Shown here one piece after another: positions 8,112 to 30,102 of a DNA stretch of 42,188 nt. A program made the position numbers and the translations under genes. This DNA comes from an uncultured Aminicenantes bacterium. Lineage in GTDB: Bacteria; Acidobacteriota; Aminicenantia; UBA2199. The notes under the pieces are model-generated. The model saw only the letters and a program-made list of their open reading frames with translations, was not told the origin of the DNA and made no database searches. The first letter of the stretch is position 1, and each line of letters opens with the position of its first letter. The stretch spans positions 1 to 42,188 of the forward strand of contig CBDAFS010000042.1 of the NCBI GenBank assembly GCA_965195285.1. The letters run 5' to 3'.

Positions 8112-8116
8112 ATCTC

Positions 8117-12703: not shown

Positions 12704-12950
12704 AGAAGTTAAGAATAATACAACTGGTTATTCATGGTCATTTGTGACCATTGGTCACGTCATTTGCATACAGAGCATGCGTCATAAGTTCACTACGTTC
12801 ACGTCATTAAGAGCTTCAGAGAACTGTAATGACAAGTTATGATAGTTCTTAATGACCAGAATCATAGGGTTTCAATGACAAGAATTTGATAGATATAATG
12901 ACAAGCTCTTTAGAGTTTAAATGACAAGCTCCAGAGAGTTCTAATGACCA
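12704..12950. repeat. Composite repeat copy D with head-to-head 22/23-nt periodic arrays
   Basis: GTCAT at 12737/12759/12781/12803 (period 22); AATGAC at 12828/12851/12874/12897/12920/12943 (period 23). Confidence 0.9.
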
Positions 12951-13038
12951 GTGATTTTTCACACTTTACTAATCATAAAAACATACCCATTTTAAATGGT
13001 AAATGATACATTTGACATGTAACATCTCACATTTTCTA

Positions 13039-14652: not shown

Positions 14653-16021
14653 GTCGAAATTTCCTCTTGTACAATACCATTTTAAATCCCAAGGCTAAAA
14701 TCAACACAAAGATAAAACCATTGGCCGGAGTCCTGAGCGCAAAATCAAACAACTCATGAAACCCGGCTGCCAGAATACTGACTAAAATAGCCAGTCCCAT
14801 CACCCTGACCTCAGGATGCTGCCTCTGCCGCCACATCCTGAAAAGCGAAACCAATAACAACCCTAAAAAGGCCATAAACAATCCGAAACCTAAAATGCCT
14901 CCGTCAACCAGGTGTTCCAGGTACTCATTATATGGATGAATCAATTTGGATTCATCTCTTTGGGTCCGGCACTGAAAGGAGATGTTTTTAAAATTTCCAT
15001 TTCCAATGCCAAAAATGGGAAACCGGGAATAAACCTTCCAGCTGTCCTGCCAGAAATCAGAACGGACATTTCCCTCCCGGTCCGCACGATTGACATCGGA
15101 CATGGTACTCTGAAGCGCAAACAGAATAGCTAACAGGGTAATCACCAATACCACCCAGCGCAGGGTTTGATGTGACATTGAAATCAGTTTCACCCGGAAA
15201 TATATAAATCCCACAGCCATTAAACAGACAGAAAGAAACAGAATCATGCGGCCGCTCACGGATTTACTCAATACAATCCCACCGACTGTACCTAAAGAAA
15301 CCAGAGCATAGAATATCAACACCCGGTTTTTAAGAAAAACCCGCCATAATTCAATACCCATTGAATCCCAGGGTCGTTCAATATAGAGTTTAACCAACAT
15401 CAATCCGATCACCAGGGGAAAAATCATCTGAAGATAAAAGGCTAAATGGTCCGGACTTAAAAAGGTACCGTTCATGAACCGGGAAGTGTTCCCCGTTTTA
15501 TAAAAGAACAGAAAAAAGTGATCGCTCCGTAATAACCATTTTATTAAACCGAGTCCCACCTGAAAAAAAGCTGAGATAGTCAGCACATGAATCAGGGAAT
15601 ACATTTCCTGTTTTTTTAAATCCTGATGCATTAATACCCAGAAAAACAAACCCATTACCATCAGCCGCATGACAAACATCAGGGTATCAGCCGGTACCAG
15701 AGAGAGGGAATGAAACAAAACGGGTTCGGCACTCATACTATCCAGAATATCTACAGTAGAGGGCGAGAAAATGTTCAGCAAAAAACGGGGTAAAGGAACC
15801 ATCTGAAAAAGTGTGTAAGCAAAAAACAAACCGCCCAATAACCGGATCTTTCTTTCATATAAAATTTCAATTCGTTCCTGAATACCCCCCAGGGCCATAC
15901 CGGATATCACCAACACAACCAGATAAAACAAAGGCGACCAGATTCGGGTGGCACATCCGAAAGTGAGGGGAGACAGCAGAATCAGGGCTTTGATACAGAT
16001 AAGGAATTTGTCTTTACTCAA
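14642..16021 (-). CDS. O-antigen ligase/Wzy_C family membrane protein
   Basis: Many TMs; R..W.DS...FPIFGIGNGNF; HPYNEYLE..DGG; HELFDFALR. Confidence 0.85.
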   Translation of the reverse strand: MSKDKFLICIKALILLSPLTFGCATRIWSPLFYLVVLVISGMALGGIQERIEILYERKIRLLGGLFFAYTLFQMVPLPRFLLNIFSPSTVDILDSMSAEPVLFHSLSLVPADTLMFVMRLMVMGLFFWVLMHQDLKKQEMYSLIHVLTISAFFQVGLGLIKWLLRSDHFFLFFYKTGNTSRFMNGTFLSPDHLAFYLQMIFPLVIGLMLVKLYIERPWDSMGIELWRVFLKNRVLIFYALVSLGTVGGIVLSKSVSGRMILFLSVCLMAVGFIYFRVKLISMSHQTLRWVVLVITLLAILFALQSTMSDVNRADREGNVRSDFWQDSWKVYSRFPIFGIGNGNFKNISFQCRTQRDESKLIHPYNEYLEHLVDGGILGFGLFMAFLGLLLVSLFRMWRQRQHPEVRVMGLAILVSILAAGFHELFDFALRTPANGFIFVLILALGFKMVLYKRKFRHET

Positions 16022-16033
16022 TTTTTATTCCTT

Positions 16034-16068
16034 GAAGTTAAGAAGATAAGAAGTTTCGAAGTTGAGAA
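16034..16068 (+). repeat. 8-mer tandem repeat (GAAGWTNN), left arm of 4HB-1
   Basis: GAAGTTAA GAAGATAA GAAGTTTC GAAGTTGA. Confidence 0.85.
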
Positions 16069-16106
16069 TATTTTTCCTAAAAACATTTTATTAAAATTAC
16101 AAAACT

Positions 16107-16487
16107 TTAGAAACAAAATTTTTCTGCCTTTTTTTCCATTGAATTCAACTTAGAAATTATTTTTTCATATTCTTCATCTAATTCTGAAAATAGTTCTTTA
16201 TTAATAAATTTACATGCCAGACAGAAATCAAACCAAGACTGGGTTTCTGATGCCTCCTGCATTGAATCTGTCAACTTGTTTTTAAAAACAGCAATATATT
16301 TTCTTTTTTTCCAAGCTTCTGCTAAATTTGAACAAACAGACCGTGATGAGCGCCTTATTTGACTCACAAGTGAATATTTTTCTTCATCAGGAAAAGATTT
16401 TGTCATTTCATAGATTTTCATTGCAGCAGTAAATGCTCTTTGATATACATCCAAATCCCTGAAATGTTCAATGTCTTTCTTTTTCAT
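16107..16487 (-). CDS. Four-helix-bundle protein (23S rRNA IVS/Avd-like family), 4HB-1
   Basis: FRDLDVYQ...FPDEEKYSLVSQIRRSSRSVCSNLAEAW..EASETQSW. Confidence 0.92.
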   Translation of the reverse strand: MKKKDIEHFRDLDVYQRAFTAAMKIYEMTKSFPDEEKYSLVSQIRRSSRSVCSNLAEAWKKRKYIAVFKNKLTDSMQEASETQSWFDFCLACKFINKELFSELDEEYEKIISKLNSMEKKAEKFCF

Positions 16488-16530
16488 CTTCTAATCTTCA
16501 GAACTTCTGATCTTCTCATCTTCCCATCTT
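16486..16530 (-). repeat. 8-mer tandem repeat (AWCTTCNN), right arm of 4HB-1
   Basis: ATCTTCTA ATCTTCAG AACTTCTG ATCTTCTC ATCTTCCC; overlaps the 4HB start codon and the PHP stop codon. Confidence 0.85.
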
Positions 16531-17340
16531 ATTTCTAATCATATCAAAGAACTTCACTTTCTTCTGTGGATCCCTGGCTTCACCGATATCGGGAACGGCT
16601 TTATCTTTTAAAATGGCCTCCGGTATCTTCTTAAACAATAGATCTGCCTTATCAGGATCGATCTCTTTAAAATGGGAATAAACCGAAGAAAGTTTAGGGG
16701 GGCGGTGTTTAATCGAATGGGCATCCGATGCCACCACATGAACCAGGTTATGCCGGATCAATTGAAGGGCAGAGGTCCGGGCCTCGGGACCGAACTGTCC
16801 CTCCAGGCTTCCGGCATTAACCTGGGACAGGGCTCCCTGTTCGACCATTTCAAATAGAATACGGGGGGTTCTCTGGATCACCTGGTTGCGTTCCGGATGG
16901 GCAATGATGGGAATCCAGCCCTCCATCAATATATTAAAAATAAACGCTTTGACTCCGGGAAATATAAAATCAAAGGGAAACTCTAAGATAAAAAAGCAAC
17001 TCTGATTCAGGGTCAGTTGTTTGTCATATGTTTTTAACAACAAACTCAGGTTGGATGTAAAAAACACCTCGGCGCCGGACAACACCCGAAGCTTAAAATC
17101 AAACAACCTGACTTTATCTAGGAATTCCTGCCTCTTCTCTAATATGGTTTCCACCTGTTTTTCAATATTGAGTTTGCTGAACACATGGGGCGTGGCCACG
17201 ATAGTGTCAATTCCATCGGCTTCGGCCATCTGCAGCATGTCCATGGATTCTTTTTCAGACTTACTCCCGTCATCCACCCCCGGAACAATGTGAGCATGGA
17301 GGTCAATCAGGCCAGTTGGTTTTTTGTTTATCTGTTCCAT
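16516..17340 (-). CDS. CpsB/CapC PHP-family tyrosine phosphatase
   Basis: IDLHAHIVPGVDDG, VATPH, IAHPERN, ASDAH. Confidence 0.93.
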   Translation of the reverse strand: MEQINKKPTGLIDLHAHIVPGVDDGSKSEKESMDMLQMAEADGIDTIVATPHVFSKLNIEKQVETILEKRQEFLDKVRLFDFKLRVLSGAEVFFTSNLSLLLKTYDKQLTLNQSCFFILEFPFDFIFPGVKAFIFNILMEGWIPIIAHPERNQVIQRTPRILFEMVEQGALSQVNAGSLEGQFGPEARTSALQLIRHNLVHVVASDAHSIKHRPPKLSSVYSHFKEIDPDKADLLFKKIPEAILKDKAVPDIGEARDPQKKVKFFDMIRNKMGR

Positions 17341-17351
17341 TTTTAAACAAT

Positions 17352-17480
17352 GAAGTTATGAAGATGTGAAGTTAAGAAGATCATAACAGATTCTATAAAA
17401 AACAAATTTTCGTAAAAAGTAAAATGTAAAAAGTGAAACTTGAATAATGTTTTCACGCATTACGTCTTCACGTATTACGT
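17352..17480. repeat. 8-mer GAAGWT array plus 7-mer hairpin (copy of 446-510)
   Basis: GAAGTTAT GAAGATGT GAAGTTAA GAAGATCA; CGTAAAAAGTAAAATGTAAAAAGTGAAACTT...TTTCACGCATTACGTCTTCACG resembles 451-510. Confidence 0.8.
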
Positions 17481-17511
17481 TTTCGAGCCTCTACTTAATT
17501 ACCAGAACTTC

Positions 17512-19788
17512 TTACTTCCTAAAACTCGTACTACCTATTTCTTTCTTATGATTCCCTTTGGCTGTGATAAACTCATGATTCTTTTCTGATTCTTTTTCCT
17601 GATACCGGTATCTGTAATTATAATTGTAATGATAATATCCATAGCCGCCCGCTTTTTTCATATTGAGGTTGTTCAACACCACTCCTAAAATCTTGATGTT
17701 GTACTTATCCAGCTCGGCCTTGGCTTTTCCCACTGCTTTTTTCGGGGTTTTCCCTCCCCATACCACCAACAGGGTACCTTCTGAGTGTCTGCTGATAATC
17801 ACCGGATCCACAATACCGATTAAGGGCGGTGTGTCAATAAACACAAAGTCAAAGAATTCTTTCATCTTTTCGATTAACATCTCCATCTTTTTGGAGTCCA
17901 GGAGCTCAGCCGGGTTAGGAGGAATGGGGCCGGATGGAATCACATAGAGGTTTTTAATATCGGTCTTAAAAAAGATATCATCTATTTTGGTTTTCCCCAC
18001 TAAAAAGGATGAAAGTCCGCCCACATTTTTTAGATGAAAAATATTGCGAATCTTGGGTTTGCGCATATCACCGTCAATGATCAATACTTTTTTGTCCAGA
18101 TTTGAAAAGGAGACGGCCAGGTTTACAATGGTGGAAGTTTTTCCCTCCTGGGGCAGGGCACTGCACACATTCATCACTTTTGGCGGTCCTTCAGCCGTTG
18201 AAAGTAAAATCGAGGTGCGAATATTACGGTAACTTTCGGCAATACTGGATTCCGGGTCCACCACATTGGCTAATTCGATATGTTTTATTTTTTTTTCTGT
18301 TGCTTTTGGATTTTTCTCCCCGTAAGAATAGGCATAATAATCATGTTTATCATTGCTTCCTAAGGCTGGAATAATTCCGATTGAAGGTATTCGCAATGAT
18401 TGTTCCACCTCCTCCGGGGTTTTCAGGGTTTTATCCAGCCAGTCCAGCCCAAAAATCAACCCGCCACCTAAAAACAATCCGATCATTAACGACATTAAAA
18501 ATACACGCTGTTTACTGGAACTGATGGGGTATAAAGGCACCTCTGCCGGTTCAATCACCTTGATGTTACTGGTCTGGAGCCCTTCCATGCGGGAGGTGAG
18601 TAATGATTCTTTCTGCATTTTCACTAAGTGATTGAGCAAAGCCCCTACATTATTGACCTCGATTTTCAGGCTGTTGTAGTAGATGGCATCGGTCTTGGTG
18701 CTCACCACCTCGGATTTCTGCCGATCTAACATGTCTTTCAGGAAATTTTCCTGCTTCAGGGCGGTTTGATAATTGGTTTCCGCTTCTTTCAGGGCTTTTC
18801 CACCACTATCAATGGTTTCCTGTCTCATGCTCTGCGCTATTGTATCCATCTGGGTTTTCAAACGTCTCATTTCCGGGTAGGATTCTTTAAAAATTTGAGA
18901 CTTTTTTTTATATTCGTTTTCCAGATCAGAATACTGTTGCTTCATATTCTGAATTAATGAATTTCTTCTGACTTCCGGATAATCTTCAAACCTTTTTCCC
19001 TTGAGCTCCCGGTAGATGGCTTCCATACTCACCCGGTCGATCTGGGCATTGGTATAGGCCTTGTTCAAATCTCCGAATTTTTCCACCACCGTGGTATCCC
19101 GGTTGGAAAGATAAAACAGCTCTTTTCGTTTTCCGTATTCCTGGAGCTCCCGTTCTTTCTGGGATAAACTTTTTCTCAAATCACCGATCTGTTTGAATAA
19201 AAAATCAGAGGCCTGTTTGGTAGACTCACTTTTCAAACGCAGGTTAAAGTCGATAAAATTCTCAAACAGGGTATTAATGGCCAGGGCAGCATACTCCGGA
19301 TCGGGTGACCGGTAACTCACTTCCACCAGTCGGGTATCTTCAATATGCATGATGGATAAACCACCCAAGAAGCCGCTTATGGCGCCTGATAGTGGGGTTG
19401 ATGTATTTCCCGAAGATTCGCCTTTCCCGGCTGTATTAGTAGTCTCCAACAGCCGGAGATCCTCAATCACTTTATTAGCCAGGCTGCGGCTTCGTAAAAT
19501 TCTTAACTGTGTGTTTAAATACTCATTTCTCCAATCACTGGCGGAAGGCATATAGCGAAGACTCAGAATGTTTTGATTTTCCTTTTCAATCATCAGGGTG
19601 CCTTTGGCCATATAGAAGGTAGTCTGCCGATACACCTGAAACATGCGAAACCCTACCACCATAAGCGTGATCAATACCACAATGGGCCAGCGCCGCTTGA
19701 AAACATACCAGTATTGTTCAAGGGTTTCACTCAGAGGTTTTTCATCCATTACATCCATATTCAATCGATCTATATTGTTGTTATCCAT
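17512..19788 (-). CDS. wzc: Wzc/GumC polysaccharide co-polymerase with tyrosine kinase
   Basis: Two TMs with coiled coil; AESYRNIRT; Walker A PQEGKTS; IDGDMR; DTPP; Tyr-rich tail YGYYHYNYNYRYRY. Confidence 0.95.
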   Translation of the reverse strand: MDNNNIDRLNMDVMDEKPLSETLEQYWYVFKRRWPIVVLITLMVVGFRMFQVYRQTTFYMAKGTLMIEKENQNILSLRYMPSASDWRNEYLNTQLRILRSRSLANKVIEDLRLLETTNTAGKGESSGNTSTPLSGAISGFLGGLSIMHIEDTRLVEVSYRSPDPEYAALAINTLFENFIDFNLRLKSESTKQASDFLFKQIGDLRKSLSQKERELQEYGKRKELFYLSNRDTTVVEKFGDLNKAYTNAQIDRVSMEAIYRELKGKRFEDYPEVRRNSLIQNMKQQYSDLENEYKKKSQIFKESYPEMRRLKTQMDTIAQSMRQETIDSGGKALKEAETNYQTALKQENFLKDMLDRQKSEVVSTKTDAIYYNSLKIEVNNVGALLNHLVKMQKESLLTSRMEGLQTSNIKVIEPAEVPLYPISSSKQRVFLMSLMIGLFLGGGLIFGLDWLDKTLKTPEEVEQSLRIPSIGIIPALGSNDKHDYYAYSYGEKNPKATEKKIKHIELANVVDPESSIAESYRNIRTSILLSTAEGPPKVMNVCSALPQEGKTSTIVNLAVSFSNLDKKVLIIDGDMRKPKIRNIFHLKNVGGLSSFLVGKTKIDDIFFKTDIKNLYVIPSGPIPPNPAELLDSKKMEMLIEKMKEFFDFVFIDTPPLIGIVDPVIISRHSEGTLLVVWGGKTPKKAVGKAKAELDKYNIKILGVVLNNLNMKKAGGYGYYHYNYNYRYRYQEKESEKNHEFITAKGNHKKEIGSTSFRK

Positions 19789-19830
19789 TTCAAAATCTCC
19801 GGAAATAAGTTAAACGTTCTCATCTTGTAC

Positions 19831-19839
19831 ATTATATCA
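19831..19839 (-). promoter_or_regulatory. Extended -10 promoter upstream of wzc
   Basis: TGATATAAT about 42 nt upstream of the ATG; GGAG RBS present. Confidence 0.5.
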
Positions 19840-19890
19840 TACCTTTGGTTTCCGTAAAATGTAAATGGTATATCAATATCCGGATTGAAT

Positions 19891-19986
19891 CTGAGGTTAA
19901 GGCAAAGGTTAAGGTTAAGAAAAAAAACCAGAATTTCTCTTTTTTCTTCGACTTCATCTTTACCTTTACCTTAATCTTTACCTCAG
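19891..19986. repeat. Hexamer-periodic hairpin bounded by CTGAGG...CCTCAG
   Basis: (GGTTAA)n arm at 19891-19919 and (TTTACC)n arm at 19946-19986; may act as a terminator or processing site. Confidence 0.8.
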
Positions 19987-20008
19987 TTCCAGTAATATTA
20001 TTACTCTC

Positions 20009-21826
20009 TCACCTTATCCTTACTTCAACCTCAACCTTCTTCCACTCCCCATCCCCCACCTTCACCTCTACCTCTTCCTTCACCTTCCCCAGATACTGCT
20101 CATAATATATCCATCCATCCACAAAAACCTGCAGCAGGTGTTTATCTTTTATTTTTTCTTTAAAAGCTTCACTTAAATTTAATACCAACACACTATCATC
20201 CATAAAATAAACCGTTTTTTTAAATCGCGTGGATTTCAAATCAATTATTCGACTATTTTTTATTTTTTCCTCTTTTCCTTCTGACTCCTGACTTCTGTCT
20301 TCTATCTCCTGATTTATTGTTTTTGTTTCGGATTTCGGATTTCGGATTTCGGATTTTCCTTCTTCTCCCTCCTGCCTCCTATCTCCTGGATCCTGGCTTA
20401 TGTTTATGTCATTTGTATTTTGGTCATTCGTGCTTGTTTCGAATTTCGAATTTCGTGCTTCGGATTTTCTTCCTTCTATCTCCTGCCTCCTATCTCCTGG
20501 ATCCTCAGCCCCTTTTTTCACATCCGAAATGTGACTTCTAACATGCAACATTTTACATTTAAGCCAACCTACTTCATCACTCTCAGGTGATATTTTCTCT
20601 ACTTCCAGTAAAACCACTTCCGCCTGCTCAATTTGATTGGTTTTCAAATACCCCTCAACCAGTAACATAAGAATTTTTGCATAATCTTCCTTCTGGTCTT
20701 CCCTGACAAAGGACATGGATTGTCGAATATCTTCACCCCGCTGGATCACCCGATTCCAACCACCCATTTTTGAGTAAATGAGTATTTCTAAAAACCGTTT
20801 TTTTAAATCCGGTTCATCAAAGAAATTTTTTTTCTTTAAAAATTGATAAATTTGATTTATATTCTCACCGGAGTCACATTCATTGATGTAAGATAAAATG
20901 GTGTCTCCCAGTTTATTTTTATTTTCCTTAAATAAAAAATCAATGCTTTTTTTTATTAGAGTTTGTTTTAATTCTCTATAAAGAGATAAATTGAAATTTG
21001 AATTTTTAATTAATTTAAAATATCCGGGAATACTATTTTTCAATCTACGTTTCCATGACCTCAATGTTTTAAGTTTATCTGTTGATTTTTTCAGATAGTC
21101 TGGAAATCGTTTCTGAAAATAGTCCAGGTAATAGTCTTCATAACCGGCAAGAAATTCCTGCCGGGCTTCCATATCAAGTTCCAGTTGTTCCAATTTTTTT
21201 GATATTTCACGATAAAACTGTGGTTTCTTTACCAAAGCTTTCTTTAGCATTTCAATGTCTTTTGAATAAATCCCCCAGACATTCAAAATGGCTGTAAAAT
21301 CCGCATTACTCATGCCTGGAATCGATTTAACCATCAAATGCTGACAAAATTCTTTATCTTCATGGTTTAAAAAAGGCCAGAGCGAGAGCAATTGTTTAAT
21401 GACTTCAACACTGATATGAGCCCGGTTCCCCCGGATAAAAGCCGCCCGTTTTAAAAATTTAAAGGCATCATCATAAAGGGTGGATTCATTATCTTGAGCC
21501 AGTTGATAGGCTTTGCCAAGGTTGAAATGGGCATTATAGAGCAGGGGATTCAACCCTATGGCTCTTTTAAAACCATTAACACTGTTATTTAATTTGGGGC
21601 GGTCAGCCCCTTTTAAATAGGCATGTTCCTCTAACAATGCAAAGGCATGTTCATAGATAAGCTCCGCATCCAGGGGAAAAACCGCAGCACTCACTTTCAA
21701 CAATCCCGACCGGGGCGGAGTTTCCTTGTTCAGCCCCAGTTTCAGGAAGATATGAGAAGTTAGTTGAAGAGAGAAGAAGAGCATAAGAACTATAAGTAAA
21801 AGTTTGAAAATTTTCGGTTGTTTCAT
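20009..21826 (-). CDS. Membrane-anchored TPR-like protein with repeat-derived insertion
   Basis: Paralog of 13039-14652; extra ~80-aa hydrophilic segment encoded by 7-mer repeats at ~20270-20510. Confidence 0.75.
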   Translation of the reverse strand: MKQPKIFKLLLIVLMLFFSLQLTSHIFLKLGLNKETPPRSGLLKVSAAVFPLDAELIYEHAFALLEEHAYLKGADRPKLNNSVNGFKRAIGLNPLLYNAHFNLGKAYQLAQDNESTLYDDAFKFLKRAAFIRGNRAHISVEVIKQLLSLWPFLNHEDKEFCQHLMVKSIPGMSNADFTAILNVWGIYSKDIEMLKKALVKKPQFYREISKKLEQLELDMEARQEFLAGYEDYYLDYFQKRFPDYLKKSTDKLKTLRSWKRRLKNSIPGYFKLIKNSNFNLSLYRELKQTLIKKSIDFLFKENKNKLGDTILSYINECDSGENINQIYQFLKKKNFFDEPDLKKRFLEILIYSKMGGWNRVIQRGEDIRQSMSFVREDQKEDYAKILMLLVEGYLKTNQIEQAEVVLLEVEKISPESDEVGWLKCKMLHVRSHISDVKKGAEDPGDRRQEIEGRKSEARNSKFETSTNDQNTNDINISQDPGDRRQEGEEGKSEIRNPKSETKTINQEIEDRSQESEGKEEKIKNSRIIDLKSTRFKKTVYFMDDSVLVLNLSEAFKEKIKDKHLLQVFVDGWIYYEQYLGKVKEEVEVKVGDGEWKKVEVEVRIR

Positions 21827-21833
21827 GAAATTT

Positions 21834-21865
21834 AGTTCTAGGTTCTACATTCTATGTTCTACGTT
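21834..21865 (+). repeat. 7-mer (NGTTCTA) left arm of 4HB-2
   Basis: AGTTCTA GGTTCTA CATTCTA TGTTCTA CGTT. Confidence 0.85.
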
Positions 21866-21887
21866 AAAAAACTTCATTTTCACAAAT

Positions 21888-22250
21888 TTACTTTCTACCT
21901 GATTTTCTTAAATAACGAATAAATCCATTTAACAATTTGATTATTTTTGTGCATCTTTCCACAATATTTTGAGACCTCTCTTCTTTAATATATTTAAGAT
22001 CAAGGGCCGCATAAGTCAGACTCTTTAATTCAGAAACCGATCCTTTTGAAATTATTAAAAATCGAATAAATTCTTTATTACTCTCTCGATCAAAGCCTTC
22101 AGCAATATTTGACATAATAGAAATAGCTGCTCTTTGAATTTGATCTCTAAATCCATAATCTTTATTATTTTTAAAATACGAATAGATTTCTGTTACAAGA
22201 ATCCTGGATTCCTTCCAAGCTTCAATATCTTCAAAATTCTCTATTTTCAT
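21888..22250 (-). CDS. Four-helix-bundle protein, 4HB-2
   Basis: FEDIEAWKESR...DYGFRDQIQRAAISIMSNIAEGFDR..KEFIRFL.ISKGS..E. Confidence 0.93.
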   Translation of the reverse strand: MKIENFEDIEAWKESRILVTEIYSYFKNNKDYGFRDQIQRAAISIMSNIAEGFDRESNKEFIRFLIISKGSVSELKSLTYAALDLKYIKEERSQNIVERCTKIIKLLNGFIRYLRKSGRK

Positions 22251-22252
22251 TT

Positions 22253-22284
22253 AACCTAGAACTTAGAACATAGAACTTAGAACT
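22253..22284 (-). repeat. 7-mer (TAGAACN) right arm of 4HB-2
   Basis: AACC TAGAACT TAGAACA TAGAACT TAGAACT; reverse complement matches the left arm at 27/32. Confidence 0.85.
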
Positions 22285-23909
22285 TAAATGTTTGAATCTT
22301 TGCTCCGGTAATTAACAACCTTAATCCCTAACACCAACACCAACACAAAAACAAACATATTGGAAGGAATTCTCAAAGAAAAATCAAAGATGGAGTGGAA
22401 TATGACCGCAAAAATAGAGACAATAATTCCCAATCCTAAGATTCTCACATCCGGGTGGTGTCGTTGTAACCATTTTTTAATAATAGAAACTATTAATAGA
22501 CCGACTAAAGAGTAAAATAATAATCCCCCGATCACCCCACCTTCTGATAAGATTTCCAGAAGATCATTATGGGCATGGGTGGACCATTTTCCTGCTCCGG
22601 TATCATACAAAAAATAAGAATAGCGATAAGTACCAAAACCTGTTCCGGCAACCGGAAAATCCTTGACCATCTCAAAGGTATTGGGCCAGCGCACAAAGCG
22701 TCCGCTTTCAACTATCTCTAACTGAGCAAATTTAGTGACCGTATTTTGAACTCCTATATATATTGCCAGGCAGGTAATAGCAACCAAAAACCATTTTATT
22801 CTCTTTCGAATATCTTTTGATTGTTTTAGATAAACCGACAGCATGGCAAATACAATAAATGAAAGGATAAGGGTCACAATACCGGAACGAGAACCGGTTA
22901 AGAGTATTCCGATTCCCACAAGGGAAATACTGATAAAATAGATTAAAACGATTTTATATTCATCGGTCAGCGACAACAAACGCTGTTTAAAAGAAATCCC
23001 GGTCTCAAAAAACCGCAGCCGGTAGAAAAAAAGGGCCAGAGCCACCGGTATGATCATTTCTAAAAAAAAAGCAAAATGGTTGGCATTGCCTAAGGTACCG
23101 GTAAGAAATTTTCTTATAGCAGATTTTTCCATCGGAATAAAAAACAGGAAAAACATTTTATTTCCCTGAGCTAATTTAAACAATCCGAAAATCACCTGAA
23201 TCGATGCACTCAATATCAGGGTATTGAATATTGAGACCATTTCCTTTTTTCTCAAATGAATTCGATTCATCACCCAAAAAAACAAACCATACAATAATAC
23301 AATCAGTCCATAGATCAGAGTTTCAAAGGGAACCATAGATATAGAAGTAAAAGTAGGTAACTCATCCACTAATTGACTCAATACTTCAATCTTTTTAGGA
23401 GATATCAGCTTAACTAAAAAAACCGGCAACGGAACAATTTGCAACCCGACAAACACCAGAAATGCGCCAAAAACTCTTTTTATCCATTTTCCGTATAAGA
23501 TATTCCCCAAATTCAAGTTTTGAGTTTTAAGTTTTGAGTTTTGAGTGAAAGATTCTGATTTTATTATTCTATCTTCTATCTTCTTCCTTCTATCTTCTAT
23601 CTCCTGGCTTCTTTTTTGGTCATTTGGATTTTGGTTATTCGTGCTTGTTTCGAATTTCGAATTTCGTGCTTCGAATTTTCTTTCTCCTGCCTCCTCAACA
23701 TTGAACCCTGAACCTTGAACCTTGAACCCAACATAGATCAAAATGGTCAACAAAAGATAGAAAAGCGGAGCCCACATCTTCCCCACACAACCAAAGGGAA
23801 GGGGAGAGAGAAGTATCAGAGTTTTTAAGTACATTAGAAATAGTTTTCTCGTTGACTGGTTGGCTGGTTGACTGGAAAATTTCGAAGAATATTTTTTAGT
23901 TTTTATCAT
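22284..23909 (-). CDS. O-antigen ligase/Wzy_C family protein with repeat-derived insertion
   Basis: GTLGNANHFA, TGSRSG, FPVAGTGFGTY, HAHNDLLE, HSIFDFSLR; paralog of 14642-16021; start codon uncertain. Confidence 0.88.
   Translation of the reverse strand: MIKTKKYSSKFSSQPANQSTRKLFLMYLKTLILLSPLPFGCVGKMWAPLFYLLLTILIYVGFKVQGSGFNVEEAGERKFEARNSKFETSTNNQNPNDQKRSQEIEDRRKKIEDRIIKSESFTQNSKLKTQNLNLGNILYGKWIKRVFGAFLVFVGLQIVPLPVFLVKLISPKKIEVLSQLVDELPTFTSISMVPFETLIYGLIVLLYGLFFWVMNRIHLRKKEMVSIFNTLILSASIQVIFGLFKLAQGNKMFFLFFIPMEKSAIRKFLTGTLGNANHFAFFLEMIIPVALALFFYRLRFFETGISFKQRLLSLTDEYKIVLIYFISISLVGIGILLTGSRSGIVTLILSFIVFAMLSVYLKQSKDIRKRIKWFLVAITCLAIYIGVQNTVTKFAQLEIVESGRFVRWPNTFEMVKDFPVAGTGFGTYRYSYFLYDTGAGKWSTHAHNDLLEILSEGGVIGGLLFYSLVGLLIVSIIKKWLQRHHPDVRILGLGIIVSIFAVIFHSIFDFSLRIPSNMFVFVLVLVLGIKVVNYRSKDSNI
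23851..23875 (+). repeat. 8-mer (GTTGRCTG) left arm of 4HB-3
   Basis: GTTGACTG GTTGGCTG GTTGACTG. Confidence 0.8.
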
Positions 23910-23924
23910 GATGGAAAATTTTTT

Positions 23925-24281
23925 CTAATTTTTTCTCAGATATGAAATGAATGAATTTATTTTTTTATGTAACTTATTTATTCTTTCTAAGATTAATTTA
24001 ACATCAAGATTAAATATTTCTGAAATTAAATAGATTGTGCTTTTTGTTTCTGCTAATGAACCTCTGGCAATAACCAAAAATTGTATGAACTCTTTGTTTG
24101 AAAATCTTTCAAACCCTTCGGCAATATTTGACATAACTGAATGCGAAGACTTCGTAATTTGCCTAATTATATTGGTATCTCTCTTCAATCTCCCAGGCTT
24201 ACAACATAATTCATAAATATCAACAGTCAGCTCTTTGGCTAATTTCCAAATCTCAAGTTCTTCAAAATTTTTAATCTTCAT
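23925..24281 (-). CDS. Four-helix-bundle protein, 4HB-3
   Basis: FEELEIWK...QITKSSHSVMSNIAEGFERFSNKEFIQFL.IARGS.AE. Confidence 0.93.
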   Translation of the reverse strand: MKIKNFEELEIWKLAKELTVDIYELCCKPGRLKRDTNIIRQITKSSHSVMSNIAEGFERFSNKEFIQFLVIARGSLAETKSTIYLISEIFNLDVKLILERINKLHKKINSFISYLRKN

Positions 24282-24303
24282 TTATTTTATTCTGTAATAT
24301 TTT

Positions 24304-24334
24304 AGTCAACCAGTAAACAAGTAAACCAGGCGAC
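24304..24334 (-). repeat. 8-mer (AGTMAACM) right arm of 4HB-3
   Basis: AGTCAACC AGTAAACA AGTAAACC AGGCGAC. Confidence 0.8.
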
Positions 24335-24339
24335 AATTC

Positions 24340-26316
24340 TTATGAGCTCTTCGCATGATGAAAAAATATATTATTCAATGCTTTAAAAAAATAGACCACA
24401 TCGGTTCGCCGCGGATGCATTTTATATCGTTTTAAATATTCTTTTTCTGACTTCCAGACCTCTTTTATATCACCCGGCATATCCGCATAATAGGGAGGAA
24501 TCAATCCTGGCTTATATTTGATCCGCTCTTTTTGAAGCTCCTTTGGATAGGTGTTAAAAAATGATTCGCTCAATGGCCGCACTCCCACCAGTTTGACATC
24601 CCATTTCAACCAGTTGAAGAGCATGGGCAGTTCATCCAGATATAATTTTCTCAGGAACTTGCCCCATCCGGTCATCCGGAAATCGTCTTTGACTTTTCCG
24701 GAATCATCCAGGGGATAATATTGTAATACATAAGAATGAATGTATTCTGAATAGGGATGCATAGTACGGAGTTTGTACATAAATATGAATTTGCCATTTA
24801 TCCCCATGCGCTTTTGTTTAAATAAGGGACCATAAGAGGGATTTTTATCACCATTGGGTTGTTTTGCTTTTTTCACAACAAACCAGGTCTGGTGATCAAT
24901 TTCTTCCAGGGCTAATATCTCAAAACCGCAGAATACAAGCCTGCCTAAAACCTCCGCCTTTGAAACAGCACGCCCCCGGCCCTTGGTGATAAAGAAGTAT
25001 AATTTATTAACCAGTGGCAGCCTGGGCATCACCCGTCGAAACAAAAAATTTAAAAATAAAAGGATCCGGGACAATACCAGGGGATAGGTAGATTTATAGC
25101 GTTCCTTCATCTGCTGTTTGCCTTCAAAACAGCCAACATAGACACCGCCTGATTTCAACTTCTGATTGATTCTGATGAGATTGTAATTGATACGGCGATA
25201 GTCATTGACCTTGCGCAGGTTGATAAAAAATTGGAGGGATTCGTCTGCCAGGATCTCAAAGTTATAGGGATTGCGGGTGTAAAAAAACGCAGATTTGGAA
25301 ATCCCGGGCTTCCCCAGGTCGATGATATCCTCGATGAATTGAAACACATCAGTATATTTTTGCAAATAAACACTGCGCAATTGTTTTTTCAATAAACCAG
25401 ACCGGGAGTGACGGCCGGGCACCACATACCTATCTTTTTTTTGAATCCCGGGTGTTTTAATTGTTATTTCTTGCTCATACTGCACACCAGGGGCGCTGAA
25501 AAAAGAGCTGCCGGGCGGTTCGATTGATCTGGGTCGCCTCTTGAAAAAATAGAGGATGACAATAATATTTTCACAGATAGCAAACACTAAAAGTGAGCCT
25601 AAAATAATAAAGCGGGAGAACACGGTCAGATTAAGAAAAACAACAAAATAAGCCACCAGACCGATCATGATCAGCTCTGATTTCCAGAAGGGAAAAATCA
25701 CATTCAGATATTTTTCATTCATCACAATTTCAAATTTATGGATCAAGAGCGAAGCCACAAAGCAAACAAAAAACAAGCCCATCAGCAATACCATATAATC
25801 TTCTCTCAATTGAACAGTGCCTTTTCGGTAGATGTAGATGGAAACAAAAGTGATACTCATAATAAGAAGTTCAATCATAAAAAACACCACGGAAAAAGGA
25901 ATGAACCTGATGATCCCGATTTTCCACAACCGGTAATTGCGAACTGAAAGATACACATTTTCCATAACAAAAAAAAGAGCAATGGGTCCATACACAATGA
26001 ACCGGGACAGGTGGTACCAGCCCAAAACATAAATGGATAAAGACACCAGACCAATAAGGGCTGTAATTGAAATAATAAAGGGTTTGATCTGCAAAAAATA
26101 ATCCTCTTCATTTGTCCTGAGAAATTTTTTGGAGAATAGCGTGGCAATCATCCAGGCCATCATCAATAACACAAAATATTTTAGAAACTTTTCTTCAATA
26201 TGAAGATGCTGCCTTTTAACATAATAGATGGCCACAAATGAACCGGCCAACAAAATTCCATCAGTAATGATTTTCAGCCAGTAAAACTTTTCTTTTTCAA
26301 GATAGTTTTTGGTCAT
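24340..26316 (-). CDS. Bacterial sugar transferase (priming phosphoglycosyl transferase) with extended N-terminal membrane region
   Basis: C-terminal YKLRTM...DFRMT.WG.FLRK..LDELP...LVGVRP...KPGL. Confidence 0.88.
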   Translation of the reverse strand: MTKNYLEKEKFYWLKIITDGILLAGSFVAIYYVKRQHLHIEEKFLKYFVLLMMAWMIATLFSKKFLRTNEEDYFLQIKPFIISITALIGLVSLSIYVLGWYHLSRFIVYGPIALFFVMENVYLSVRNYRLWKIGIIRFIPFSVVFFMIELLIMSITFVSIYIYRKGTVQLREDYMVLLMGLFFVCFVASLLIHKFEIVMNEKYLNVIFPFWKSELIMIGLVAYFVVFLNLTVFSRFIILGSLLVFAICENIIVILYFFKRRPRSIEPPGSSFFSAPGVQYEQEITIKTPGIQKKDRYVVPGRHSRSGLLKKQLRSVYLQKYTDVFQFIEDIIDLGKPGISKSAFFYTRNPYNFEILADESLQFFINLRKVNDYRRINYNLIRINQKLKSGGVYVGCFEGKQQMKERYKSTYPLVLSRILLFLNFLFRRVMPRLPLVNKLYFFITKGRGRAVSKAEVLGRLVFCGFEILALEEIDHQTWFVVKKAKQPNGDKNPSYGPLFKQKRMGINGKFIFMYKLRTMHPYSEYIHSYVLQYYPLDDSGKVKDDFRMTGWGKFLRKLYLDELPMLFNWLKWDVKLVGVRPLSESFFNTYPKELQKERIKYKPGLIPPYYADMPGDIKEVWKSEKEYLKRYKMHPRRTDVVYFFKALNNIFFHHAKSS

Positions 26317-26331
26317 TTTAGTTCTTTTCCC

Positions 26332-26359
26332 AGAAGACAGAAGTTAGAAGGTAGAAGAA
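26332..26359 (+). repeat. 7-mer (AGAAGNN) left arm of 4HB-4
   Basis: AGAAGAC AGAAGTT AGAAGGT AGAAGAA. Confidence 0.8.
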
Positions 26360-26436
26360 AAGTCAATTAATAAAAATCTTATATTTATTATTCTAACTTC
26401 TACCTTCTTAATTCTTTATTATAATTTTTAAATTCA

Positions 26437-26802
26437 TTAAGAATCTTTTTTTATTGCTTGTGAATAACCATTTATTAATTTACCAACTTCATTCATAAGA
26501 TCATTGATTTCTTTAATGTATCCATATTTTAAATCTTTTGACAAAAGTAAATAATAACGACATTCTTCCAGAGATCCTTCAGCAATATTTAAAAATCTGA
26601 GTTTATCTTGTTTTCCTCTTTTTTTATAACCTTCGGCTATGTTAGCGGCAATCGAAATTCCAGCTCTTCTAAACTGTGAGGTTAATCCATATATTTCTTC
26701 TTTCGGATATCCAGAAGTCAGATCATATATTTTCAATACTAGTTCATGCGATTTCTGCCATACAACCAATTCCTTAAAACTTTTTGTCTTATTTTTTATC
26801 AT
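26437..26802 (-). CDS. Four-helix-bundle protein, 4HB-4
   Basis: FKELVVWQKSH...YPKEEIYGLTSQFRRAGISIAANIAEGY..RFLNIAEGSLEECRYYL. Confidence 0.94.
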   Translation of the reverse strand: MIKNKTKSFKELVVWQKSHELVLKIYDLTSGYPKEEIYGLTSQFRRAGISIAANIAEGYKKRGKQDKLRFLNIAEGSLEECRYYLLLSKDLKYGYIKEINDLMNEVGKLINGYSQAIKKDS

Positions 26803-26884
26803 CTTCTATCTTCTACCTTCTTTCTTCTATCTCCTTTCTCCTCCCTTCGACCTTCTATCTCCTATCTTCTTTCTTCTATCTTCT
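26801..26884 (-). repeat. 12 x 7-mer (ATCTTCT-like) right arm of 4HB-4
   Basis: 84 nt filling the whole spacer between the upstream stop codon and the 4HB start codon. Confidence 0.9.
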
Positions 26885-27861
26885 CAGCTATTTTTCTTTA
26901 CAAAAAACCACTTCTTAACCACATTCTTCACATTCTGACTCACCAACTCCCACATCCAGGGGATAAACCTATCATTCCACCTCTGGGGATGAATATTCAG
27001 CATGATTTTCTCCGGCAACCGACCTTCTCTAACTGCTCTTATAATATCATTCGTCGAATGAAAAGAATTTTTAAATTTTGTTATGTTGTTTGTTTGTATT
27101 TTTTTTTCTTCTTTATTCTGTATTCTTTCTTCTATCTTCTCTTTCCTTTCCTCTTGCCCCTCGCCTCTCGCCTCTGCATTAGTAATCGTGTTTGTGTTAT
27201 AAAGAATCTTTCTATCTTCTATATTCTTTCTTCTATCTTCTATCTTCTTACTTCTATCTCCTATCCCCTCTCCCCTCGCCCCTTGCCTCTCGCCTCTCAC
27301 CCGATCTCGTACATTATAGCTTTCCCCATCCCATCTCCTTCCTGTATCAGTTAAATACAATACCTCATTAAAATCAATATCAAAATAAGGTTCGCCAATA
27401 ATTCCAAAATCTCTATAATTGTATTTCTCCCACAATTTTCTACTATCCCATTTAGATAGAGGAGAACCATGCATACTTATGGTTTTAATATCAACAATTT
27501 TCCGAAATTCATTTAATTCATTTTTAAACAATTCAATTCCCTTGCTCAAGTTTCCTTTGGTTTTTGATAAAACTTCATAATGATAACCAATTTCGTGACC
27601 CATTTCAGCAATTTTTTTAATAATCTCTTTATCAAAAACATCTGAAACAATCCTGAAATAATAGCTTGCCCTAATTCCAAGTTCATTCTCAATTTTTGCC
27701 ATTTCAAGAGCATTTTGGGGTATAAGATCCACATCATGCCTGATGATAACAATCTTTTCAAGAGGAGATTGGATATAAGCCTCAAGAGTTTTGAAGGAAT
27801 GTTCCAGTTCAATTAAAGAATGCAATAACTGCTTGTATAATGTCATAGTAAAATCTTTCAT
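26884..27861 (-). CDS. Polysaccharide deacetylase-like (CE4) protein with repeat-derived insertion
   Basis: RHDVD, GHEIGYHYE, MHGSP, YLTDTGRRW, NIHPQRW; low-complexity insert at ~27100-27300. Confidence 0.75.
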   Translation of the reverse strand: MKDFTMTLYKQLLHSLIELEHSFKTLEAYIQSPLEKIVIIRHDVDLIPQNALEMAKIENELGIRASYYFRIVSDVFDKEIIKKIAEMGHEIGYHYEVLSKTKGNLSKGIELFKNELNEFRKIVDIKTISMHGSPLSKWDSRKLWEKYNYRDFGIIGEPYFDIDFNEVLYLTDTGRRWDGESYNVRDRVRGERQGARGEGIGDRSKKIEDRRKNIEDRKILYNTNTITNAEARGEGQEERKEKIEERIQNKEEKKIQTNNITKFKNSFHSTNDIIRAVREGRLPEKIMLNIHPQRWNDRFIPWMWELVSQNVKNVVKKWFFVKKNS

Positions 27862-27943
27862 TGTTTATTAATTTGATATTCTAGAAAATAGATTAAAGCT
27901 GTCACATGAATTTTATCCCCAAACTTCCAAATTATTCTTTTTA

Positions 27944-29008
27944 TTACTTTAATATAACTTTTTCAATTAATTGAATCATTTTTTCTGCAACATTATTCCC
28001 AAATATATCAGATTGACCATGTGAAGGCTCAAAACTACTAATAGTTTCTACAAAATTATCGGAATCAGGCTGTACTAAAACATTCCATCCATCATTTATA
28101 GTTTCAACCCATTCAGTTTCTGAGCGAATGGTTATACAAGGTTTCTTTAATATATAGGCTTCTTTCTGTATACCACCGGAATCAGTAATGATTTTGTTTG
28201 AATAATTTTCCAGACAAATAAAATCCAAATATCCTAAAGGATCAGTCAATATAATATTTTCAGGAACTATAATATTGAAATTATCAATCATTTTTTTAGT
28301 TCTGGGATGTATTGGAAAAACTACTTTCTTATTCACTCTGCCTAACAAATCAATTATTTTTCCTAATTTTTCGGGAATATCAACATTATATGGGCGATGT
28401 AGAGTTAATAAAAAATAATCATTTTTTTTTATTTTTATTATTTCTAATATTTTAGATAGTTTTTTAGCTTTCTCTAGATTTCCTTTTAATGCATCTACCA
28501 TTATATCACCCGTTAGAAAAGATCCTTTAACAAGACCCTCAATCTCAAGATTTTTCATAGCAGTCTCGGTTGGAGTAAACAAATAATCAGAAATATGATC
28601 AGTAACAACTCGGTTAATTTCTTCAGGCATTTCCCTGTTATAACTCCTCAAACCTGCCTCTATATGTAAGAGAGGTATGCCCATTTTCGTGGCAGATAAA
28701 GCTCCAGCTAACGTAGAATTTGTGTCTCCAAAAACAGTTACTAAATCAGGCTTCTCTTTGAGAAGAACTTTTTCCAAAGAAATAAGCATATTACCTGTTT
28801 GTATCCCATTATTCCCCGAACCTATTCCCAGGTCATATTTTGGTAAGTTAAGTTGAAGATCTTTGAAAAACATTTCAGACATGTTTCGATCATAATGCTG
28901 ACCTGTATGAACAATAACATTCTTTAATTTTTCTTGAAATCTCACTGATAACGGAGCAAGTTTTATAAATTGTGGCCGCGCGCCGACGATCGAAACGACT
29001 TTTTTCAT
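27944..29008 (-). CDS. wecB: UDP-N-acetylglucosamine 2-epimerase (non-hydrolysing)
   Basis: VGARPQFIK, HTGQHYD, GDTNST, HIEAGLRS, MPEEINR, TDSGGIQKEA. Confidence 0.95.
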   Translation of the reverse strand: MKKVVSIVGARPQFIKLAPLSVRFQEKLKNVIVHTGQHYDRNMSEMFFKDLQLNLPKYDLGIGSGNNGIQTGNMLISLEKVLLKEKPDLVTVFGDTNSTLAGALSATKMGIPLLHIEAGLRSYNREMPEEINRVVTDHISDYLFTPTETAMKNLEIEGLVKGSFLTGDIMVDALKGNLEKAKKLSKILEIIKIKKNDYFLLTLHRPYNVDIPEKLGKIIDLLGRVNKKVVFPIHPRTKKMIDNFNIIVPENIILTDPLGYLDFICLENYSNKIITDSGGIQKEAYILKKPCITIRSETEWVETINDGWNVLVQPDSDNFVETISSFEPSHGQSDIFGNNVAEKMIQLIEKVILK

Positions 29009-30102
29009 TTGAATCTCAGGTGATACTCCGGATTCTTTTTAATGGTCCTGGCGCTTTCAGGCAAATTTTCAACGAACCAGACCATGAAGGACGTGACATC
29101 GATTCTGTCTCCAAGCATTCGTTTTTGTCTTTGTCGCCATATTTCCTTGAGGTTATGTAGTTTTAACAATTCAGTTATTTTTTCCTGCAAAGAATTGAAT
29201 TCCTTGGGCAAAAAGGAATAACATAACCCATACTTCTGCTCGAGTTCATTGGGAACCGACAATTTCCCAGCAAAAGAGTTGCATTTTAGAGCCGGAGTTC
29301 CCAATACCGCAGCTTCCGAGGTCATGGTCTGGCTGTCACCGATAAACATGTTTGCATAATACAACAGGGAATGGATCTTATCCGGTGATAAACTCAATTG
29401 ATAGGTCTTGAACTCTGGGTCGATTTCATTTTCAGTGGTGATAAACACTTTTCCATTTGGACTCAGCAGATCGATGAGATGGCGCTTGTTTTCGAGTGTA
29501 AGGCCCTTGGCACCAACATCATGATGCGCCTTAAAGGCATTAAAACGAAGGATAAAATAAGGATCCCCCACATTCAATCCCAATACAGTTAAAACCGCTG
29601 GATCGGGAGAAAATCTTTTTGGATGCAGATAGGCCAATTCATGATATCCTGGATAGCCAATATTTTTTTTTTTATATTTTTTAAAGACAAGACAATCAGG
29701 AGAAAGGATAATTCCTGAAAACGGATAAGAATATTTTGTGATGAACGGGACAACATCTTCATCATCATCGCTTAAATGTATCGATTTCATTGATGTTAAA
29801 AAAGAAACATGATCATTTGTTATGGAACTACCCAATCCAATTTCAAATTTATATTTTTTTACTAACTTATAAGCTTTAAAATCAAATTGCAATTGCTTCA
29901 ATATTTTTCCTTTTATTCCTTCTCCTTTTGATCCTAAAAGAATATAAGGTATTTTATAAATATCTAATAATTTATTGATCATGTGATCTTTTTTTGTAAT
30001 CACAATTACAAAATGTTCTTTACGTATAAGCTCAAAATAGATATGACGTAATAGATGAACCTGCCCTGGATGATTTAATTCAATAAGAATTTTCATTTTC
30101 AC
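29005..30102 (-). CDS. DUF354-like GT-B fold protein
   Basis: HPGQVH, YPGYHELAYLHP, AHHDVG, GDSQTMTSEAAVLGTP. Confidence 0.8.
   Translation of the reverse strand: MKMKILIELNHPGQVHLLRHIYFELIRKEHFVIVITKKDHMINKLLDIYKIPYILLGSKGEGIKGKILKQLQFDFKAYKLVKKYKFEIGLGSSITNDHVSFLTSMKSIHLSDDDEDVVPFITKYSYPFSGIILSPDCLVFKKYKKKNIGYPGYHELAYLHPKRFSPDPAVLTVLGLNVGDPYFILRFNAFKAHHDVGAKGLTLENKRHLIDLLSPNGKVFITTENEIDPEFKTYQLSLSPDKIHSLLYYANMFIGDSQTMTSEAAVLGTPALKCNSFAGKLSVPNELEQKYGLCYSFLPKEFNSLQEKITELLKLHNLKEIWRQRQKRMLGDRIDVTSFMVWFVENLPESARTIKKNPEYHLRFK

Follow-up and report, generated by a model that had tools for sequence, protein, structure and literature searches.

The PF05635/TIGR02436 four-helix-bundle (4HB) proteins form a very large bacterial protein family with solved structures, for which we know of no function. 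Open reading frames (ORFs) of this family, there termed S23p, are found in intervening sequences (IVSs) of 23S rRNA, and PMC4990558 cites ORF-bearing examples from Leptospira, Xanthomonas and Brucella next to the IVS in helix 45 of Coxiella burnetii. According to the same text, the Coxiella IVS is 428 nt long and consists of an S23p ORF and a 28-bp terminal stem; its 5′ part has an AGAAGA motif and, ahead of the ATG, three heptamers in tandem with a fourth that is degenerate, the heptamers being present in two or three copies depending on the strain. RNase III cleaves this IVS in mid-stem (PMC4990558). The authors of that study doubt that the ORF is translated, cite a homopentameric toroid for the S23p family and quote older ideas of IVSs as remnants of transposition or as mobile elements, their origin and mobility having been open since about 1990 (PMC4990558). 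Here we describe four genes of this family in a stretch of 42 188 nt, the whole of contig CBDAFS010000042.1 (C42; hereafter the window) from the genome of an uncultured Aminicenantes bacterium (3.28 Mb, 62 contigs, 42% G+C). Each of them is enclosed by its own pair of inverted tandem arrays and lies between the genes of a polysaccharide operon. ORF-bearing IVSs are known from rRNA; by analogy, the cassettes of the window would represent such elements in operon mRNAs instead.

Four-helix-bundle genes between inverted tandem arrays

Between 14.6 and 29 kb of the window every long ORF lies on the minus strand. The products of this operon include Wzy-type polymerases, CpsB/CapC, a Wzc-like tyrosine kinase, a sugar transferase and a UDP-GlcNAc 2-epimerase. 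Interleaved with its genes on the same strand are four ORFs of 118–126 codons, 4HB-1 to 4HB-4, which match PF05635 with E-values of 2e-31, 1e-33, 5e-26 and 6e-36, respectively (91–123 bits; curated cut-off 33.8), and TIGR02436, ‘four helix bundle protein’, with 92–119 bits (cut-off 24). Among solved structures, 2GSC (Xanthomonas XCC0516; E 1.3e-17, for 4HB-4) and 2RLD come closest, both deposited with five chains. Six matches to PF05635 were found genome-wide, the four on C42 and two on contig C30, the latter likewise situated between co-directional protein genes; none of the six ORFs is disrupted, and their Pfam scores far exceed the cut-off.

The features of the four cassettes, all on the minus strand, are as follows. 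The 4HB-1 ORF (16107–16487, 126 amino acids) has an upstream (5′) arm at 16484–16530, which overlaps the ATG and comprises 5.9 copies of an 8-mer, and a downstream (3′) arm at 16034–16068, an array of 8-mers reading GAAGWTNN on the plus strand; Tandem Repeats Finder (TRF) reports 16034–16053 and 16484–16530, both with period 8. For 4HB-2 (21888–22250, 120 amino acids) the upstream arm (22251–22286, 7-mer with the sense unit AGTTCTA) abuts the ATG and the downstream arm lies at 21834–21867, the TRF calls being 22253–22286 (4.9 copies) and 21835–21865 (4.4 copies), both of period 7. The 4HB-3 ORF (23925–24281, 118 amino acids) lies between an upstream 8-mer array (24288–24334, sense GGTTKACT) and a downstream arm (23848–23891) made up of an 8-mer array and unique pairing sequence, with TRF calls of period 8 and about three copies each at 24304–24326 and 23851–23875. 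Upstream of 4HB-4 (26437–26802, 121 amino acids, with a sub-threshold bAvd match) there are 12 copies of a 7-mer (arm 26801–26887; TRF 26801–26884, period 7, 12.0 copies), and downstream about four copies of AGAAGNN on the plus strand (26329–26366); this latter array, at 26332–26359, is below the TRF score and was seen by eye, and it is paired in the predicted fold. On C30, one example has arms of about ten TAGTAAG and about nine TACTTCT units.

In minimum free energy (MFE) folds of the sense-strand cassette RNA the arms form a terminal stem across the ORF, with 29, 31, 34 and 34 bp for 4HB-1 to 4HB-4 (in 4HB-1, 16034–16068 pairs with 16489–16523); for the two C30 cassettes, stems of 29 and 58 bp are predicted. 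The start codon and the purine-rich stretch preceding it lie inside the stem or at most 5 nt from it in five of the six cassettes (4HB-1, 4HB-2, 4HB-3 and both C30 copies), and in 4HB-4 the 12-copy array extends to the ATG. Profiles, TRF and folds thus confirm what a preliminary description had read from the letters of the window, namely four IVS-like genes between inverted 7/8-nt tandem arrays, with upstream arms at the start codons of three of them.

For comparison with other genes, the upstream flank of each of 2751 crude ORFs of the genome was locally aligned with its reverse-complemented downstream flank. The scores have a median of 16 and a 99th percentile of 28; those of the six PF05635 genes, at 70, 47, 41, 39, 36 and 30, are all among the top 25. 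This contradicts an equal frequency of inverted arrays around arbitrary genes. The remaining high scorers are mostly genes of roughly 300 codons related to IS200 or to REP-associated tyrosine transposases (RAYTs; REP, repetitive extragenic palindrome), with REP-type inverted repeats. When the arms of the six genes are aligned in a 6 × 6 matrix, the cognate pair has the top score in each row and column, with an off-diagonal maximum of 28. Thus the earlier statement that the repeat unit differs from gene to gene holds as far as cognate pairs align best, but 4HB-1, 4HB-4 and 4HB-6 (one of the C30 copies) have purine-rich units that are related to one another, and sizeable energies are predicted for their cross-duplexes. 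With RNAduplex, the upstream arm of 4HB-4 pairs more strongly with the downstream arm of 4HB-6 (−51.3) than with its cognate arm (−42.0), and 4HB-1 and 4HB-4 are separated by small margins. For these reasons we do not claim that the arms within the operon are orthogonal. The 5′ arm of 4HB-1 (16484–16530) is also partly complementary (16 of 19 positions) to an array at 17350–17381 beyond cpsB, and cpsB is bracketed by this weaker alternative pairing.

Comparison with described elements

As in the 23S rRNA IVSs, a PF05635 (S23p) ORF occupies the loop, in sense with the host transcript, and the total length is 430–570 nt. Two further features recall the Coxiella IVS as described in PMC4990558: the terminal inverted-repeat stem, with 29–34 bp in the window and 29 and 58 bp on C30 as compared with 28 bp, and the tandem repeats directly before the ATG, the copy number of which varies between strains (metagenome runs X2 and X3 as compared with the window, see below). 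Stem lengths and Coxiella likeness bear out the proposal that each unit is an array–ORF–inverted-array cassette of the design of ORF-bearing 23S IVSs, and very probably the units are the same kind of element. If so, rRNA IVSs would be the visible tip of a widespread class of hitchhikers in long transcripts, the PF05635 family would gain a concrete nucleic-acid partner to test, and the cassettes would be natural insertions that split operon mRNAs without killing them. In all structural points but the host, the window cassettes agree with the description of the Coxiella IVS. Unlike that of the 23S rRNA IVSs, the host transcript of the window cassettes is a protein-coding operon, and it is for the rRNA elements only that cleavage by RNase III has been shown. 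For four differently armed copies in a single operon no counterpart was found in the rRNA IVS literature consulted. None of the six copies is inserted in 23S rRNA (helix 9, 25 or 45), as all lie between protein-coding genes. The 23S gene of the genome, on C14, is of normal length (2996 nt; model of 2925 positions) and contains none of the six PF05635 hits, and no Rfam match was obtained in the window.

The Avd proteins of diversity-generating retroelements (DGRs; bAvd, PF22296; NF033474) have a homologous four-helix-bundle fold, with weak bAvd/Avd matches for 4HB-4 and 4HB-1. The role of Avd is pentameric and nucleic-acid-associated. It is mentioned as such in PMC10053308. The window proteins reach 21–34 bits with the Avd equivalog NF033474, whose cut-off is 80. 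No neighbouring gene in the window matched a reverse transcriptase family, no PF00078 match was found in the 94.9%-complete genome and, unlike DGR Avd loci, the window cassettes have no pair of template and variable repeats. A DGR role is not supported because there is no PF00078 match and NF033474 stays far below its cut-off. Intergenic tandem heptamers of several unit types are also known as the short tandemly repeated repetitive (STRR) sequences of heterocystous cyanobacteria, which the present arrays resemble in both respects. To our knowledge, STRR sequences have not been described as inverted pairs enclosing a PF05635 gene.

Distribution and genomic placement of the cassettes

PF05635 was matched in 28 of 41 related genomes, and 13 of the 20 loci inspected there have flank scores of at least 28, each with its own unit. 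A match was also obtained in Bacteroides thetaiotaomicron, from a control set. A wider set was assembled by a pattern scan with one genome per species, which gave 80 loci, 76 of them with enough flank. It covers more than 15 phyla and includes Clostridia, Ignavibacteria, Omnitrophota, Desulfobacterota, Bacteroidota, Chlorobi, Chloroflexota, Cyanobacteria, Planctomycetota, Verrucomicrobiota, Gammaproteobacteria, Deinococcota, Gemmatimonadota and Nitrospirota. A score of at least 28 was reached by 52 of the 76 homologue loci as compared with 10 of 124 neighbouring ORFs of the same loci (Mann–Whitney p 5e-16); compared with shuffled flanks, z was at least 5 in 53 of the 76 loci and at least 3 in 58. 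Inverted arrays are therefore enriched both over shuffled controls and over other genes, the two comparisons for which the preliminary description had called. The array-wrapped layout is common in the PF05635 family, but not universal; the array hairpin is a property of the gene family and more general than first thought. In the 53 strongest loci the repeat periods of the two arms are 7/7 in 28 cases, 8/8 in 7 and 9/9 in 3, and the median arm length in the wide set is 30 nt, or about four units. Two cyanobacterial loci (L084 and L104) have the cassette layout as well. In the literature searched, with subscription-only papers outside its coverage, no description of an array-wrapped cassette outside rRNA was found. 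At one locus of the set (L085:1828–2214) a 128-codon PDDEXK_3 (PF13366) gene lies beside a 4HB cassette and has strongly complementary flanks of its own, with a score of 58, which suggests that other small genes can occupy array hairpins.

Two neighbours could be called at 72 loci, and at 57 of these both are co-directional with the 4HB gene. Carriers of operon-embedded cassettes include Flavobacterium, Pedobacter, Winogradskyella and Pseudoalteromonas (loci L057, L108, L048 and L076). A Pfam scan of 119 of the 151 neighbour ORFs revealed insertion points between sufB and sufC, trpG and trpD, kdtA and lpxK, wzm and wzt, atpA and atpG, gap and pgk, nuoF and nuoG, nuoK and nuoL, rmlB and rmlA, rmlA and rmlC, the genes for HlyD and AcrB, and beside a thiolase gene adjoining a hydratase/dehydrogenase. 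Five genera of Flavobacteriia (loci L048, L052, L061, L086 and L090) have a common site in a split metH, between the homocysteine-methyltransferase gene and the pterin/B12 part; the arm units at this site are related, not identical, between the genera and complementary within each. One further cassette, in a related genome (L005; G037:C237, 1402–1907), is located between the last two repeats of a clustered regularly interspaced short palindromic repeats (CRISPR) array with about 20 repeats of 30 nt, whose spacing is 66–67 nt and increases to 456 nt at the cassette. A repeat similar to that of L005 adjoins the cassette of L017, and the upstream neighbour in L035 is cas6. The special link to exopolysaccharide operons implied by the preliminary description was not borne out: because homologous cassettes occupy many ordinary housekeeping operons and a CRISPR array, the occurrence in an exopolysaccharide mRNA is incidental.

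Putative processing of the operon transcript

Three readings of the cassette had been put forward, a mobile unit, a segment excised from the mRNA by RNase III and a repeat-binding regulator, and these are not mutually exclusive. In the mechanism that we find best supported, with about even odds, the arms would pair within the transcript and the duplex would then be cleaved by RNase III, in analogy to the rRNA elements. The window cassettes lie between cistrons and are co-directional with them, and would therefore be transcribed as part of the polysaccharide-operon mRNA. The arms would pair in the transcript, as in the 23S rRNA IVSs, and the long duplex of near-perfect type would be a substrate for the RNase III of the cell, the gene for which is present in the genome. 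Once the stem is cut, the loop with the ORF would be set free, and the cistrons on either side would remain on separate pieces that can still be translated. As long as it is closed, the stem would also bury the ribosome-binding site and the AUG of the small gene. As DNA, arms and ORF are gained, lost or duplicated together as one unit, and slippage alters the arms by repeat units. Looping-out or excision from the mRNA is a prediction from the folds and the rRNA precedent, and any benefit or neutrality of the cassette for the host would be equally putative. Taken as a whole, the reading as IVS-type cassettes in operon transcripts with a stem of about 30 bp as RNase III substrate could equally turn out right or wrong; that processing of the operon mRNA by RNase III would actually take place falls slightly short of an even chance.

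Several observations weigh against this reading. Selection on an RNA helix should leave an excess of G-U pairs on the sense strand; in 53 loci the arm mismatches comprise 42 of sense-G-U type, 52 of antisense-G-U type and 141 transversions, and thus give no positive sign of such selection. Maintenance of the arm symmetry at the DNA level may fit these data equally well. The arm signal over shuffled flanks is absent (z < 2) in 16 of the 76 wide loci, and in 6 of the 72 loci with two callable neighbours the cassette is antisense to both. While translation of the Coxiella ORF is doubted, all six ORFs of the present genome are intact. It is also not obvious that a cut between the cistrons of an mRNA is neutral, and RNase III does not account for stems built of tandem units. 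Finally, among the listed runs containing DNA of positions 17000–26950, none is on record as an RNA run.

The upstream arm contains more G than C in 42 of the 53 loci and less in 6, with 5 ties. We considered a G-rich 5′ arm as a strand-specific signal and rejected it, as the 5′ arm of an inverted repeat reads the same on both strands; Shine–Dalgarno-like content of the arm beside the ATG may lie behind the G-richness.

Gain, loss and duplication of cassettes

Contigs of related strains from the metagenome runs X2, X3, X4 and X6 were aligned to positions 13000–30000 of the window. An X6 contig covers 20970–21789 and 22292–23462, with about 175 nt of its own in place of the 502-nt 4HB-2 cassette. 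In the X4 contigs and in one X2 contig, position 16009 is followed by 31 nt, a copy of the AGGTTA array, 13 nt and position 16490, so that the 4HB-1 ORF and its 3′ arm are replaced by about 77 nt, whereas another X2 contig (14691–17169) and an X3 contig (15691–16694) retain this cassette. The 4HB-3 cassette was found in X6 (23872–25005). In the downstream arm of 4HB-4, position 26344 is followed by an additional TAGAAGA unit in both X2 and X3, and about 57 nt (roughly 8 units) of the 12-copy array 26801–26884 are missing from X2. The sequences of these strains suggest an exchange of spacer content together with slippage, not a clean excision.

A similar difference is found between congeners. 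In the related genome G001 the spacer between the genes for Wzc and CpsB is about 800 nt long and contains a PF05635 gene with GGTAAA/GGTTAA-type arms; the corresponding spacer of the window (17341–17511) lacks a 4HB gene and contains arrays together with a short hairpin (a GAAGTT-type array and the hairpin at 17350–17484, minus strand, from TRF and the G001 comparison). The genes flanking the G001 cassette are 71–74% identical to those of the window. A duplication was found in another related genome, G038, where a 511-nt cassette occurs twice with 97% identity, in spacers about 2 kb apart within one pilin-like operon and with unrelated flanks (L122, G038:C129, 2268–2777 and 4330–4839). The two copies encode proteins that are identical across the conserved 118 residues. 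They differ at a single position in the 354-nt conserved ORF core and at 9 positions in the 83-nt upstream arm region, or, in the full count, at 4 positions of the 411-nt ORF and at 11 of the 99 homologous nt outside it (Fisher p 6e-6). As the differences are concentrated outside the ORF, the arms change faster than the gene. Thus sites without the cassette, which the preliminary description had suggested looking for, do occur (X6, X4/X2 and G001 as compared with the window), and cassettes are gained, lost and duplicated as whole units at the DNA level. Filled and empty sites have diverged so far that these comparisons apply to whole spacers and not to junctions of single bases.

Each G038 copy has three arrays, the first of which can pair with either of the other two, one close by and ahead of the ORF, the other distant and behind it; it is mainly in the upstream arrays that the copies differ. 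A generally more variable upstream array, as seen in L103 and the G038 pair, was not confirmed: variability is lower upstream than downstream in 25 loci and higher in 22, with 6 ties (Wilcoxon p 0.39).

These findings bear on the idea that the inverted arrays act as terminal hairpins or recombination signals of a transposase-less cassette, which would depend for its movement on a host enzyme supplied in trans (e.g. a transposase of the Y1/HUH type with single-stranded hairpins as substrates) or on recombination within arrays, the pairing in RNA being incidental. Presence or absence between strains and congeners, the one cassette at two unrelated spacers of G038, similar arms and ORF in different phyla and arm mismatches without an RNA wobble signature are all in line with it. 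The same holds for the IS200-like Y1 transposase genes of the genome, one of which, a RAYT-like gene, lies 1.5 kb from a C30 cassette, and for the dispersed ORF-less hexamer hairpins with the arm type of the G001 cassette, a family of which 72 of 107 pattern matches fall in spacers (see below). Short inverted repeats that are dispersed over intercistronic spacers and vary between strains are typical of REP hairpins, bacterial interspersed mosaic elements (BIMEs) and miniature inverted-repeat transposable elements (MITEs), to which the ORF-less hairpins can be likened as well. However, unlike in REP/BIME and MITE sequences, the arms are tandem arrays with copy-specific units and not a conserved palindrome, and the cassette carries a conserved non-transposase gene. 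Measured by what defines insertion sequences and MITEs, the arms differ among the six copies of one genome, whereas an enzyme acting in trans usually needs conserved ends; the boundaries of the G038 copies lie inside arrays and no target-site duplication is recognisable there. No cassette contains a transposase, the strain variants resemble replacement of spacers instead of clean excision, and the sense orientation in 90% of the cassettes between co-directional genes (57 as compared with 6) would not be required of an element acting at the DNA level. On balance, we consider this explanation somewhat unlikely.

Repeat units and protein clades

Repeat units at most one base apart were found in 8 of 29 pairs of loci with at least 60% protein identity, in 6 of 99 pairs with 50–60%, in 8 of 269 pairs with 40–50% and in 4 of 279 pairs with less than 40% identity. 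None of 2000 permutations over 50 loci reached this association between unit and protein; repeat type thus co-varies with protein clade. Some of the pairs cross phyla; for example, the proteins of Thermoflexus and a member of the Planctomycetota are 69% identical and share a GAGTGCT-type unit. The association fits a movement of whole cassettes between lineages, and it also allows recognition of the unit by the protein, although co-inheritance alone would give the same pattern.

Such recognition is the core of another explanation, according to which the four-helix-bundle protein, as a pentamer, binds four to five repeats of its cognate arms, in the form of RNA or of single-stranded DNA, and in this way regulates how it is translated, how the stem is processed or how the cassette is copied or moved; the arrays would be binding sites first and stem second. 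The unit following the protein clade, including the cross-phylum pair, speaks in favour of it. So do the median arm of 30 nt with about four units, next to the five chains of the 2GSC and 2RLD depositions and the homopentameric toroid cited in PMC4990558, and a GTT core in 30 of the 50 consensus units (our own count on the list). However, co-variation is to be expected without any binding, because arms and ORF are inherited together. The G038 copies, with their identical core of 118 residues, differ at 9 of 83 upstream-arm positions, which argues against strict base-by-base recognition, and the arrays range from 3 to 12 units and vary in length between strains. We regard a reader of cognate repeats as unlikely. 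Still more speculative, and in our opinion distinctly improbable, is a combination of the above, in which the PF05635 gene and its heptamer hairpin would form an autonomous transposase-less mobile element colonising rRNA, operon mRNAs and CRISPR arrays: the pentamer would recognise its own repeats on the hairpin, as RNA or as single-stranded DNA, and help the cassette to be copied or inserted into further spacers between cistrons, and removal by the RNase III of the host would render the insertion nearly harmless.

Other arrays and hairpins of the genome

The genome contains 292 arrays of period 6–8, mainly on four contigs (densest on C16, C42, C30 and C41). Beyond the PF05635 genes, some of these short-period arrays form short-loop hairpins and some flank other genes; inverted array pairs occur also around nitroreductase-like, DUF354-type, ABC transporter and other genes, or are empty. 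One might thus argue that the genome fills its spacers with microsatellite-like arrays and REP-like hairpins between which small genes come to lie by chance, but with six of six PF05635 genes among the top 25 of 2751 ORFs, the cognate pair best throughout the 6 × 6 matrix and a layout shared by more than 15 phyla (52 of 76 loci as compared with 10 of 124 neighbouring genes), such a coincidence is extremely improbable.

The hexamer family AGGTWA has 107 genomic matches, of which 72 fall in spacers according to the crude ORF map, and many of its arrays are hairpins with loops of 38–48 nt. In the window, an ORF-less hairpin of AGGTTA and CTTTAC arrays with a 38-nt loop lies at 19894–19983 (minus strand; TRF and pattern scan), and further AGGTWA arrays are found at 571–588, 796–813, 6046–6063 and 8098–8115. 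Arms of the AGGTWA type enclose PF05635 genes in the congener G001, and as read from the sequence the loop of the empty hairpin 19894–19983 retains the A-run and the T-run that border the ORF in the G001 cassette. The ORF-less hexamer hairpins may thus derive from cassettes, as relics or in miniature form.

Runs of different heptamer arrays (sense GATAGAA, AAATCCG, TTCGAAA, GGGTTCA and others) occur at 20270–20505, 23516–23729 and 27105–27298, within the long ORFs 20009–21826, 22284–23909 and 26884–27861, respectively, and related strains diverge or rearrange exactly at these runs. The three ORF calls may be over-extended through array-filled spacers. For annotation this means that such spacers are read as spurious ORF extensions, and arrays also fragment metagenome assemblies.

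A two-part hairpin, with a GTAAAAA-type array followed by a TTCACGCNTTACG-type array, is present at 452–548 and 17412–17484 and, in G001:C262, downstream of the cassette. At 12828–12948 there is a 46/23-nt tandem repeat with a AATGACAAG-containing unit, and next to C30:47400 there is a similar repeat that contains GTCATT. Several IS200/Y1-transposase-like (RAYT-like) genes of about 220–300 codons with REP-type inverted repeats are distributed over the genome (C26:202–1110, C49:48810–49718, C27:24306–25211, C15:51416–52318, C8:11353–12024 and C30:32107–33075).

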